From NCBI RefSeq assembly GCF_003318295.1, contig NZ_QOCW01000018.1, forward strand, positions 32,047-56,046: a DNA stretch of 24,000 nucleotides, given 5' to 3'. The stretch is from Bacillus taeanensis. GTDB lineage: Bacteria > Bacillota > Bacilli > Bacillales > UBA6769. The notes beneath the pieces were generated by a model that had not been told where the DNA came from, did not search any database, and was given only the letters and a program-made list of their open reading frames with translations. Positions 4,170 through 7,683 of this stretch are shown here, one piece after another. Position numbers and translations under genes: made by a program. Within the stretch, counting starts at the first letter, position 1; the number at the start of each line of letters is the position of its first letter.

Positions 4170-4385
4170 TTATGAATCTTCATCGCTGCGGTATTCTAAA
4201 ATATCGCCTGGCTGACAGTCTAACGCTTTACAAATTGCCTCTAACGTTGATAATCGAACCGCTTTCGCCTTACCATTTTTTAATATAGAAAGATTCGCCA
4301 TTGTTATTCCAACACGCTCAGATAGTTCTGTTACACTCATTTTCCTTTTAGCCAGCATCACGTCAATGTTGATTATAATCGCCAT
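4170..4385 (-). CDS. XRE/Cro-type HTH transcriptional regulator (YozG-like)
   Basis: HTH segment MSVTELSERVGITMANLSILKNGKAKAVRLSTLEAICKAL. GAGGTG SD lies 6 nt before the ATG at 4385. The SD overlaps the stop of the upstream gene, suggesting translational coupling. Confidence 0.8.
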   Translation of the reverse strand: MAIIINIDVMLAKRKMSVTELSERVGITMANLSILKNGKAKAVRLSTLEAICKALDCQPGDILEYRSDEDS

Positions 4386-5802: not shown

Positions 5803-5915
5803 ATTATCCAATCCTGGTTAAATCCGACTATATAAAACCATCTAAATTCATATAAAATAACTAAAATCATGTTTTATTATAGAAAAAACAGATCTAACCA
5901 GATTCACCTCCTTTT

Positions 5916-7163
5916 TTATTCATGTTTATTCAAAAAATAAATGTGGTTAAAACGCCATAAAAGCTTAAGGCGGTTTATTCCATATCTTTTTAAAACCTTT
6001 CCTTCAGTCGTCGTCAGGTTACACTGCTTCTTTTTAGGATAAAGTGCTGTGATATATCCTTCATAGACGTCCCCATTTCGTTTCGTATAACGGACAAAGT
6101 CTCGATGGTGAAAATCATTGACTTTGTCTATTTTCTTTTTGGAACGTCTTCTCATCGGTTTGATGCACCAATCCTTGATGTGACACTGCTTAGAAGAAAC
6201 GTGTAACTGGGAAAGAACAATGGCATCGTTTGAATGGGATTTTCCAATTGCCCAGTCTATCCGCCGATTGGCCGTATCTCCTCCTGTTGTGAGCGTAAGA
6301 GGCCCGATTTTTTTCAATTCCTGTTGAAAATAAGTTTTCCCCTGCATCACGTGCATCGCATCATGGAAAGCGATCTTTTTTCCACGAATCTTTTTGAAAA
6401 ATCGTTCCGCATGATCCGATTCTTCTCCTGTTACTTGTTCGTGACAAGAGGAACAGAGTGTGATGAAGTTGTGTATCGAGTCAGAGCCTTGTAAACGTCT
6501 AGGAATAATATGATGAACTTCTAAGCGACAATGAGTATTTCCACAATCTTGACACGTAAAATGATCTCTCATTAACGCTGCTTTTCGTAAGTTTTCATCT
6601 AATCGATTGGATTTTTGATAATCCCACTGATAAGGTTGACTGCCTTTTTCCAACTTACGAATATCAATCATCACATTTTCTAAATGAATGTGGTTCACGC
6701 GAGTCCATTTCATTAGTTTGTTTAACAAGCGTAATGTTGCTTCTTTTTTTTGTTTGATACTTGGTGGGGTACGACCTTCTCTTGTTGATGATGAACGGTT
6801 ATGAAACCGTTTTGGACGATTTTTTTTGTGAGAGCGTTTATACCTTCTATAACTTCTTCTTGTGTCCATTTTATCTTTTACATCGGTGCGGTGTTCGATT
6901 GTTCCTTTAAAGACCGGTTTGTTTTTTGTTTGGCATTCTTGCACAAGGGCAATGCCAGTAAATTTAGAGCCATCATCGATATTAAAATGAATCAGTGTTT
7001 GATCGATTTTTTCGTCTGCCACTTCCTTAAAAAGTTGAATGACCATTGGAAACTTGTTGATGAGTGCTGCTTTGTTTTTTCGAATAAGAACCCAACCGCG
7101 ATTTTCATTTGTCGGAGAGAGTTTCCTTCCTTTTCCATCTAACACAAAACAGTATGAGACCAT
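5916..7163 (-). CDS. iscB: IscB-type RNA-guided endonuclease (OMEGA effector; RuvC with inserted HNH)
   Basis: 415 aa, uninterrupted, with AAGGAGG SD 10 nt before the ATG at 7163. PLMP-like N-terminus: CFVLDGKGRKLSP...FPMVIQL. RuvC-I: NIDDGSKFTGIALV (D63). Arg-rich bridge helix: RRSYRRYKRSHKKNRPKRFHNR (residues 102-123). RuvC-II: HIHLENV (E162). HNH with zinc knuckles: CQDC...EVHHIIPR...N232...CSSCH (C204/C207/C237/C240, H217/H218). RuvC-III: GKSHSNDA (H310, D313). Basic C-terminal tail. Collinear by eye with my recollection of OgeuIscB. Confidence 0.88.
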   Translation of the reverse strand: MVSYCFVLDGKGRKLSPTNENRGWVLIRKNKAALINKFPMVIQLFKEVADEKIDQTLIHFNIDDGSKFTGIALVQECQTKNKPVFKGTIEHRTDVKDKMDTRRSYRRYKRSHKKNRPKRFHNRSSSTREGRTPPSIKQKKEATLRLLNKLMKWTRVNHIHLENVMIDIRKLEKGSQPYQWDYQKSNRLDENLRKAALMRDHFTCQDCGNTHCRLEVHHIIPRRLQGSDSIHNFITLCSSCHEQVTGEESDHAERFFKKIRGKKIAFHDAMHVMQGKTYFQQELKKIGPLTLTTGGDTANRRIDWAIGKSHSNDAIVLSQLHVSSKQCHIKDWCIKPMRRRSKKKIDKVNDFHHRDFVRYTKRNGDVYEGYITALYPKKKQCNLTTTEGKVLKRYGINRLKLLWRFNHIYFLNKHE

Positions 7164-7391
7164 CTCTGGTCAGCCTCCTTCGAAAAGGGGATTGTTCTCC
7201 TTGCCAAAGTCATCAGACGGGATGTGTGCGTTCGCTGTTTCGTTTCCAAGAGGTAGGAAACAGTCTTACTTAGCACTCATAGAGCCTCAGACTGGAGAAA
7301 CATCCAAGGGTATGTCTGAACCGCTCCCTGACAACGTAGTTCATCATGCTGTCTTTCTTTCAAAAGACTACACTCACTGAGGCTTGAAAGC
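7164..7391 (-). ncRNA. candidate omega-RNA (HEARO-type) scaffold of IscB; the 5' end may extend to about 7475
   Basis: Abuts the iscB start on the same strand. About 47% G+C by hand count for 7164-7380, versus about 32% for 7381-7500. Perfect 8-bp long-range pairing AGCCUCAG (7384->7377) / CUGAGGCU (7290->7283). The first arm lies in the loop of a 7-bp stem, CUUUCAA (7390->7384) / UUGAAAG (7363->7357). Further hairpins at 7242-7261, 7300-7315 and 7177-7188. Confidence 0.6.
7174..7180 (-). promoter_or_regulatory. Shine-Dalgarno of iscB (AAGGAGG)
   Basis: Minus-strand AAGGAGG lies 10 nt upstream of the ATG. Its first four nt form the 3' arm of a CCUU-UUCG-AAGG hairpin (7177-7188). Confidence 0.7.
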
Positions 7392-7402
7392 ACAAAACAG
7401 TT

Positions 7403-7464
7403 CATATAAAACCAAGTCCTCTCGATTTTATATGATTTTTTACGGTTTTATACGAAATAAAACC
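7403..7464. repeat. two adjacent perfect AT-rich hairpins (possible IS200/605-type subterminal structures or the 5' part of the omega-RNA)
   Basis: Plus strand: CATATAAAA (7403-7411) / TTTTATATG (7426-7434) with a 14-nt loop. Also GGTTTTAT (7444-7451) / ATAAAACC (7457-7464) with a 5-nt loop. An alternative 9-bp pairing is possible between 7405-7413 and 7444-7452. Confidence 0.5.
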
Positions 7465-7548
7465 AACTGTTCCGAGCTCCTTATATTTCATGTGTGATTT
7501 TGACATTCTTATTGCACGATCCAGCTTGGTTTGCTCTTAAGAGAAGTT

Positions 7549-7683
7549 TTACTTATTTTTGATTTCTTCTAACAAGGAAATAATCTTTTCGTTTTGTTCA
7601 ATTAAGGTATTGTTCTGCTGTCTCATTCTTGTAAAATCGAATAAGAACACTATTAAAATAATTATTATAAAGACCATAGACAT
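7549..7683 (-). CDS. possible 44-aa small membrane protein (below the ORF-track cutoff)
   Basis: Hand translation: MSMVFIIIILIVFLFDFTRMRQQNNTLIEQNEKIISLLEEIKNK*. GAGGTGA SD lies 5 nt before the ATG at 7683. One TM helix plus a charged helix. Same strand as iscB and directly upstream of it. Confidence 0.45.
   Translation of the reverse strand: MSMVFIIIILIVFLFDFTRMRQQNNTLIEQNEKIISLLEEIKNK

Follow-up and report, generated by a model that had tools for sequence, protein, structure and literature searches.

The stretch of DNA analysed here (the window, 24,000 nt from Bacillus taeanensis) raises the question of whether the leader of its iscB gene is the scaffold of an omega-RNA and, if so, where that RNA starts and stops and how it folds. 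The original prediction, made from the sequence alone, took positions 7164-7391 on the minus strand to be a structured omega-RNA scaffold of the HEARO type, GC-richer than its flanks, and pointed to a perfect 8-bp pseudoknot between 7384-77 and 7290-83. The call itself is right, and it is borne out by the IscB ORF, by a significant sub-threshold HEARO match, and by covariation in 75 homologues; the structural argument behind it is mostly wrong. Our reading is that ~7496->7158 on the minus strand is very probably the omega-RNA of a non-autonomous IS200/IS605-type IscB element at ~7481->5811, with its function assigned by homology. The gene and the two ends of the element lie as follows.

7163->5916, minus strand: iscB ORF, 415 aa, intact, with RRXRR and HNH domains (Pfam)
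5811..5915, minus strand: distal part of the mobile element, with AATCTGGTT...AACCAGGAT as its closing sequences; the match to other copies runs out at ~5811
7481..7496, minus strand: putative guide segment CACACAUGAAAUAUAA, ~16 nt (length assumed), just outside the conserved element

The product of the ORF matches the RRXRR (3.8e-45) and HNH (1.2e-9) families of Pfam. At NCBI, a protein with 100% identity to it is named 'RNA-guided endonuclease IscB [Bacillus taeanensis]', so it is already annotated as IscB there. The NCBI protein matches also include two further B. taeanensis IscB paralogues at 89-90% identity and Geobacillus IscB homologues at 63% identity. The closest relative with a solved structure is HfmIscB (PDB 9k2z), which aligns with residues 2-412 of the 415 at E = 5.8e-141, while OgeuIscB and other IscB structures match at ~1e-16. 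HfmIscB presumably uses an omega-RNA of the same sub-family as the window; our literature search found no paper describing HfmIscB, and the match to TbaIscB carried no RNA information. The acidic, histidine, and cysteine residues that are invariant in a 29-sequence alignment are all kept in the window IscB.

The genes around iscB are ordinary chromosomal ones (BacA, DUF817, an HTH protein, DUF2975, gerPA, and Mqo). Upstream of the omega-RNA, a small ORF (7683->7550) and gerPA are both on the same strand as iscB, and a promoter-like site at 7692-7664 belongs with the small ORF. A search for a terminator between the small ORF or gerPA and the guide found none. Because these upstream genes are co-oriented with iscB and are not separated from the guide by a terminator, read-through could supply a transcript that contains the guide.

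To place the element ends, we used L001 and L026, two copies of the element in another Bacillaceae genome. By blastn, the window aligns with them from 7481/7482 to 5809/5811 at 77% identity. Similarity to the independent copies L001, L026, L011, and L014 stops at 7481/7482, which is the guide/scaffold junction; conservation starts at GGAGCUCGG (7480), and the sequence 5′ of 7480 is unrelated between loci. At the other side, the distal edge follows ...AACCAGGAT, where a 3-sequence consensus fold shows two hairpins enclosed by the inverted repeat AATC(C)TGGTT/AACCAGGATT. The element in the B. taeanensis chromosome thus appears, from these alignments, to extend over ~7481->5811. Its ends at 7481 and ~5811 are shared between copies and its distal end is structured, and the window has no tnpA; the assignment to the IS200/IS605 type is a probable one. 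The putative guide sequence is present once in the window, and its position relative to the scaffold is as in OgeuIscB (PMC9640706).

These ends change the limits of the RNA. At its 5′ end, the range 7164-7391 misses the guide as well as ~90 nt of the scaffold, and at its 3′ end it misses a start-codon hairpin. The contrast in composition that was pointed out is real, with 47.5% G+C for 7380->7164 against 32.5% for 7500->7381 (the whole window has 36% and the first 120 nt of the iscB ORF 39%), but the AT-rich 'flank' is the conserved first domain of the same RNA (7480-7387, 33% G+C). In agreement with this, the upstream regions of homologues align with the window over the whole leader, well past the proposed 5′ limit. 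The idea that the 3′ end runs into the iscB start is supported, with conserved structure that reaches codon 2.

Next we consider whether the RNA belongs to the HEARO family of Rfam (RF02033). A scan of the window at Rfam gathering thresholds gave no match. A permissive scan found a full-length match to HEARO that is significant (E = 9.2e-7), but its score of 40.8 bits does not reach even half of Rfam's gathering score (83 bits). None of 20 homologous loci reaches that score (0/20), and the HEARO model therefore under-detects the whole clade. The low score weakens formal Rfam membership and not omega-RNA function; by architecture and covariation the window RNA is a clear omega-RNA member, though undetected at the Rfam threshold. 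We note that the square brackets in the structure line of the HEARO alignment denote a nested enclosing helix and not a pseudoknot.

For covariation, homologues were collected by a profile-based scan of representative genomes, which gave 80 loci with 45-78% protein identity from Bacillaceae, Clostridia, Halanaerobiales, Lachnospiraceae, and others. One alignment of their upstream regions (A2) was made with MAFFT, is blind to structure, and holds 63 sequences. A curated structure was drawn from visible compensatory changes and then counted on the alignments. A covariance model of the clade was built from the curated fold and run on all loci, where it gave 77 matches, and the second alignment (A3) was fitted to this model and holds 75 distinct sequences. 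In the window, the clade model has a single match of 225 bits, within the range of the other members. The Rfam match and the parts of the curated fold are these.

7423->7189, minus strand: sub-threshold match to HEARO (RF02033), 40.8 bits, E = 9.2e-7, full model 1-211
7387..7480, minus strand: guide-adaptor domain (P1), 94 nt, AT-rich (33% G+C), with two sub-hairpins
7203..7383, minus strand: nexus stem, GCCU 7383-7380 / UGGC 7206-7203, which encloses the core
7338..7378, minus strand: junction hairpin on the 5′ side of the junction, AGU 7378-76 / ACU 7340-38, with a stem 7373-63 / 7356-46 and the loop UGAAAG
7209..7335, minus strand: central stem, GUUGUCAG 7335-28 / CUGAUGAC 7216-09, plus CGG 7323-21 / CCG 7220-18
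7278..7314, minus strand: nexus-pseudoknot hairpin, CAU 7314-12 / AUG 7280-78 and CCUUGGAU 7309-02 / GUCUGAGG 7292-85, with the loop 7301-7293
7226..7276, minus strand: second long hairpin (hairpin B), GUGC 7276-73 / GCAC 7229-26, GU 7269-68 / GC 7235-34, and GUUUCC 7261-56 / GGAAAC 7247-42
7196..7298, minus strand: true pseudoknot, loop UCUCC 7298-7294 / GGAGA 7200-7196, 5 bp
7177..7188, minus strand: terminal hairpin 1, CCUU-UUCG-AAGG, whose 3′ strand overlaps the Shine-Dalgarno GGAGG
7158..7171, minus strand: terminal hairpin 2 (start-codon hairpin), GACC 7171-68 / GGUC 7161-58

The RNA is strongly structured as a whole, with a minimum free energy of -110.4 kcal/mol for 7480->7150 (z = -4.84). 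On A2, the curated fold has 81.0% of cells paired vs 66.6% when shuffled and a covariation score of 0.411 vs 0.179 (0/500 shuffles), and when the partners are slid by 1-3 columns, pairing drops to 34-44%. On A3, 85.7% of cells are paired and the covariation score is 0.464, with shuffled covariation at 0.17-0.18 for both alignments. RNAalifold was not given the curated structure and still finds its nexus stem and pseudoknot hairpin, the hairpin at the start codon, and, in the second long hairpin, the inner stem. Covariation across the 75 homologous upstream regions thus supports the fold as the canonical omega-RNA layout.

At the 5′ end, the basal stem of P1 is GGAGC.UCGGAACAG / CUGUUUUG.GCUUU, with CUUUC (7390-86) closing the domain against the 5′ GGAGC. 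The domain folds at -36.9 kcal/mol (z = -6.7), and 56 of 57 homologues form at least 10 pairs between the first 15 nt and the last 22 nt even where their sequences differ completely. The HEARO match places its first hairpin differently (7423...), and this register was rejected in favor of 7480-7387, where the P1 basal stem forms in 56/57 homologues. The nexus stem that follows shows several kinds of base pair at two of its positions (CG:56 GC:7 UA:4 AU:1, and CG:61 UA:4 GC:1), and the juxtaposed A7384 and A7202 flank its base. In the junction hairpin, the AGU/ACU helix is paired in 98.5% and the stem 7373-63/7356-46 in 83%, the latter with changes on both sides in 9/10 pairs.

The central stem GUUGUCAG/CUGAUGAC is 92.7% paired and each of its 8 pairs has changed on both sides, and its CGG/CCG extension is weaker (62% paired, moderate support). 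Inside it, pairing in the nexus-pseudoknot hairpin is 99.5% for helix 6, 77% for helix 7, and 99.7% for helix 8; CUGAGG 7290-85 pairs with CCUUGG 7309-04 in the 99.7% core helix, and the whole hairpin corresponds to a hairpin of the HEARO model. In hairpin B, helices 10-12 are 89%, 88%, and 68% paired with changes on both sides in all pairs, and the register of the inner stem (68%) has moderate support. The alternative register CUGUUU(C)/(G)AAACAG, which is that of HEARO and of the original prediction, is only 35% paired and was rejected.

At the 3′ end, conserved covarying structure runs from 7480 to 7158 and thus across the AUG at 7163-61. The closing pair of terminal hairpin 1 is CG in 38 sequences and UA in 34. 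The start-codon hairpin, which has the A and U of the AUG in its loop and the G together with codon 2 in its stem, is 95.2% paired, has changes on both sides in 4/4 pairs, and is predicted by RNAalifold too. Both terminal hairpins lie beyond the 3′ end (7189) of the Rfam HEARO match. As a separate observation, these hairpins are missing from the Rfam model; they sequester the Shine-Dalgarno along with the start codon, and they show covariation with codon 2.

There is a pseudoknot in this RNA, as was proposed, but it is not the one that was proposed. The loop UCUCC of the nexus-pseudoknot hairpin pairs with GGAGA, which begins two nucleotides past the 3′ strand of the nexus stem. The pairing was left out of the covariance model. 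It is 92.3% paired vs 73.4% shuffled, with a covariation of 0.562 vs 0.239 (0/500 shuffles), slid controls at 40-57%, and changes on both sides in 4/5 pairs. Variants among the homologues include CGCUUU/AAAGCG, UCGUC/GACGA, and UUGUU/AACGA. Covariation scans for further pseudoknots, by single and by stacked columns, were dominated by clade-level noise and gave nothing convincing beyond the curated helices. In a search for partners of the hairpin B loop (7255-7248), the candidates for loops of the CCU type are the AGG of terminal hairpin 1 and the Shine-Dalgarno, and for loops of the AGG type the CCU strand of terminal hairpin 1; the polarity of these candidates reverses between clades, and the motifs are of low complexity.

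How does this fold compare with omega-RNAs that have been solved? The omega-RNA of OgeuIscB is known by cryo-EM (Kato et al. 2022, PMC9640706; also PDB 7xht, 7utn, and 8csz). Its order is guide, guide-adaptor hairpin, a 5-bp nexus stem with an A:A pair, and central stem; C93-C96 in the loop of its nexus-pseudoknot hairpin are paired to G155-G158, which lie directly after the nexus stem on its 3′ side, and its 3′ part is a linker with two terminal hairpins (PMC9640706). All of these elements are present in the window RNA, including the A/A juxtaposition at the nexus stem, and in both systems the omega-RNA is coded directly upstream of iscB. The window pseudoknot 7298-94/7200-7196 corresponds to C93-C96:G155-G158 of OgeuIscB (PMC9640706), and in both it is a pairing of 4-5 bp with the nucleotides immediately 3′ of the nexus stem.

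The two RNAs also differ in several ways. The OgeuIscB protein is only a distant relative (E = 1e-16, aligned over ~residues 114-323), and the window scaffold is ~320 nt vs 206 nt, which is ~110 nt longer. The adaptor is a branched 94-nt domain in the window and a 43-nt hairpin in OgeuIscB. The window junction hairpin lies 5′ of the central stem, whereas stem loop 3 of OgeuIscB lies 3′ of it, and the pseudoknot hairpin comes before the other inner hairpin in the window and after it in OgeuIscB. With HEARO RF02033, by comparison, the helix order is the same as in the window: first hairpin, enclosing stem, small hairpin, and an 11-bp stem with two hairpins. To fit the window, the HEARO model needs a 35-nt insertion in the small hairpin, and it misplaces the first hairpin inside the enlarged P1. 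RF02033 has been described as lacking downstream structural elements (Meers et al. 2023, 10.1101/2023.03.14.532601), and our two terminal hairpins past the end of the model are consistent with that gap.

Another close comparison is with the IscB elements of G. stearothermophilus (ISGst; Meers et al. 2023), which are Bacillota elements of the non-autonomous IS200/IS605 type, as the window element probably is. Both are oriented as the upstream host gene, an orientation reported for IscB elements (Meers et al., 10.1101/2023.03.14.532601), and the donor-joint targeting model would apply to both. A Geobacillus protein from our set, P0040, was considered as the GstIscB of Meers et al. and rejected, as its residues do not fit the D58/H209/H210 numbering. 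The RNA can also be compared with the crRNA:tracrRNA or sgRNA of Cas9. In both cases, a scaffold with a nexus-like core element places a 5′ guide for a nuclease with RuvC and HNH domains. Unlike the Cas9 RNAs, omega-RNA has no CRISPR array and no separate tracrRNA, and its guide is fixed by the insertion site; it is also much larger than Cas9 guide RNAs and takes over roles of the missing REC lobe.

Characterised homologues suggest how the locus would work. The transcript would start with ~16 nt of flanking sequence from outside the element that would act as the guide. This would be followed by the ~320-nt scaffold, that is, the branched guide-adaptor domain, the nexus stem, the junction hairpin, and the central stem, which holds the nexus-pseudoknot hairpin and the second long hairpin. 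The 5-bp pseudoknot joins the loop of the first inner hairpin to the nucleotides just 3′ of the nexus stem, and the two terminal hairpins overlap the Shine-Dalgarno, start codon, and codon 2 of iscB. Once transcribed and processed, the RNA would be bound through its scaffold by IscB (RuvC + HNH) to form an RNP, and the guide would direct cleavage of DNA that matches the element flank. The practical target would be the empty donor site left after TnpA-mediated excision, where recombination would then restore the element, giving the system a role in homing. This leaves the known working of IscB systems unchanged, and the practical value of the result is modest. It annotates an omega-RNA below the Rfam threshold, from a Bacillota clade whose IscB nucleases are compact (~410 aa), and the covariation-tested structure, the pseudoknot, the guide junction, and both element ends are input for the design of single-guide constructs for this ortholog.

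An active omega-RNA is not the only reading of the locus. It could instead be a decayed or immobilised relic in which an omega-RNA-like sequence and an iscB ORF are kept with no present guide-directed activity. A search for tnpA in the 24,000-nt window found none, and a search for a TAM beside the distal end in 14 loci found no consistent motif and no evident TTCAT, the TAM reported for ISGst (Meers et al. 2023). In addition, the shared flanks of L005, L009, and L034 suggest that some related elements were inherited vertically and sit at one and the same site in related genomes. These points would fit a relic, but iscB without an adjacent tnpA is the rule, as only ~1.5% are associated with it (Meers et al., 10.1101/2023.03.14.532601). 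Moreover, the ORF is full length and keeps the residues invariant across the 29 homologues, all RNA helices are intact in the window, whose clade-model score of 225 bits falls among those of the other members, and the two B. taeanensis paralogues at 89-90% identity suggest recent spread. On balance, we regard a relic as improbable and a functional omega-RNA as the better reading.

The 3′ hairpins bear on a second alternative, in which the region is no more than a structured leader of the iscB mRNA; it would control translation or stability in cis as a 5′ UTR and would have no guide function in trans. In favor of a leader are the overlap of terminal hairpin 1 with the Shine-Dalgarno, the covariation with the coding sequence of terminal hairpin 2, whose stem takes in the G of the AUG and codon 2, and a terminator-like hairpin with a U-rich tract flagged at 7177-7156. 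A leader role of the 3′ hairpins is compatible with omega-RNA function, however, and is not an alternative to it. A multi-domain pseudoknotted structure of ~320 nt that is kept down to 45-50% protein identity exceeds what translational control needs, its architecture corresponds helix by helix to the solved omega-RNA (PMC9640706) and to HEARO, and the boundary of the element is exactly where conservation sets in, beyond which, on the 5′ side, the sequence is variable, as a guide junction predicts. A leader with no guide function is therefore very unlikely, and the omega-RNA reading is retained.

Within the omega-RNA reading, the hairpins at the Shine-Dalgarno and start codon might work as a switch, either by tying iscB translation to the folding of the omega-RNA or the assembly of the RNP, or by fixing the 3′ end of the omega-RNA through attenuation, and together with the enlarged, branched adaptor they might mark a distinct Bacillota omega-RNA sub-family missed by Rfam thresholds. 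We think this doubtful; if such a switch did operate, the element would autoregulate its nuclease dosage.

We now return to the pairings on which the original prediction was built. Every oligonucleotide that it quoted is present on the minus strand where it was placed, so the question is only whether the pairings are conserved, and in the homologues both main helices are indistinguishable from shuffled controls. The 8-bp pseudoknot 7384-77/7290-83 is 67.7% paired vs 66.8% shuffled with a covariation of 0.064 vs 0.062, and the 7-bp stem CUUUCAA/UUGAAAG (7390-84/7363-57) is 60.9% paired vs 60.3%. The central pairs of the 8-bp pairing are unpaired in 57/68 and 46/68 sequences, with the same picture on A2. 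Where C7382 varies, the change is compensated by its nexus partner at 7204 (CG:56 GC:7 UA:4 AU:1, 1 unpaired), whereas its proposed partner at 7285 shows no compensation (9 unpaired, no double changes). The nucleotides of both pairings are used by other covarying helices: GCC 7383-81 pairs with GGC 7205-03 in the nexus stem, and UUGAAAG is the GAAA-type loop of the junction hairpin. Among 300 dinucleotide-preserving shuffles of the 228 nt, 42% contain a perfect 8-bp complementarity, and the mean longest stem is 7.4 bp.

The proposed fold could still be a real, lineage-specific alternative conformer in B. taeanensis, such as a folding intermediate or an inactive state, in which the stem 7390-84/7363-57 presents AGCCUCAG to CUGAGGCU at 7290-83; both pairings are perfect in the window, 7/8 pairs of the 8-bp pairing are kept in the closest relatives L001 and L026, and most homologues can pair its outer AGC/GCU part (both motifs being conserved), but with covariation at the shuffled level, compensation of C7382 elsewhere, every nucleotide claimed by strongly covarying helices, a perfect match so common in shuffles, and no use of the 8-bp pairing in the minimum free energy fold, such a conformer is highly improbable. 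The 8-bp pseudoknot and the 7-bp stem are chance complementarities, and the caution to be drawn is that a conspicuous perfect long-range complement arose by chance while the real pseudoknot is a plainer 5-bp pairing.

The smaller pairings proposed for the same fold gave similar results. AGUCUU/AAGACU is 49.2% paired vs 47.5% shuffled, UCAGAC/GUCUGA is 59.2% vs 60.1%, and ACAUACC/GGAUGU, CAUC/GAUG, and CUGUUUC/GAAACAG counted together are 52.0% vs 51.1%. The only one of the proposed helices that holds is GUUUCC/GGAAAC (7261-56/7247-42), which is conserved and covarying and forms the inner stem of hairpin B.

Past the point where the Rfam HEARO model stops, the omega-RNA continues into two further hairpins that run up to and into the start of iscB:

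7158-7188, minus strand: two terminal hairpins, past the end of the HEARO model

One of these hairpins overlaps the Shine-Dalgarno sequence, GGAGG, and the other is formed by a GACC/GGUC pairing in which GGUC consists of the G of the AUG together with codon 2. Among 75 homologues, this start-codon hairpin covaries with the coding sequence. Downstream of the terminal hairpins lies a U-rich tract, which is encoded by conserved YCFV codons. The terminal hairpins and the U-rich tract may serve in translation control or in defining the 3′ end of the omega-RNA.

In the second long hairpin, the loop UACCUCUU (7248-7255, minus strand) is able to pair with GAGG in the stretch that holds the Shine-Dalgarno sequence and terminal hairpin 1 (7174-7190, minus strand). 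Other clades have an AGG-rich sequence in this loop, which fits the CCU strand of terminal hairpin 1 instead. The match could reflect a tertiary contact, or it could be a chance agreement between low-complexity motifs. Lineage-specific insertions in several homologues (L021, L043 and L073, at columns 139-154 of the 63-sequence alignment; L025, L050, L061 and L064) reveal the positions in the RNA that tolerate expansion. In Niallia, an extra 16-nt hairpin lies within the stem of the pseudoknot hairpin, and in other insertion-bearing homologues the second long hairpin has extended loops.

The element's distal end is also structured, and we find it in three copies:

5811-5905, minus strand, in the window; 4247-4356 in homologous locus L001; 4244-4353 in homologous locus L026: distal element end, an inverted repeat and two hairpins

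The inverted repeat AATC(C)TGGTT / AACCAGGATT closes this end and encloses two AT-rich hairpins, and both repeat and hairpins are kept in all three copies. This structure is probably the transposon end recognized by TnpA. In the Neobacillus clade (L003, L005, L009, L010, L013 and L034; ~4290-4330), the element terminates in ...TTGTTACCAGG, and only 5-10 nt separate it from the ATG of a downstream, identically oriented host gene; in the window, the element end likewise coincides with the TTG codon at which a 56-aa ORF (5811 to 5641) starts. The terminal AGG of the element may be, or substitute for, the ribosome-binding site of the host gene.

At the opposite end, the guide lies directly downstream, on the same strand, of a short reading frame:

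7550-7683, minus strand: apparently unannotated 44-aa ORF (MSMVFIIIILIVFLFDF...), with a good Shine-Dalgarno sequence and a promoter-like site at 7692-7664

The ORF has no match in Pfam, and a strong terminator (7808-7782) precedes it. In the homologous locus of Neobacillus sp. PS3-12 (L002), a ZMP/ZTP riboswitch (2570-2649; 63 bits, above the gathering threshold) precedes the scaffold of the IscB element by ~35 nt, which places the element between the riboswitch and its former regulated target. Transcription of this guide would then be under riboswitch control.
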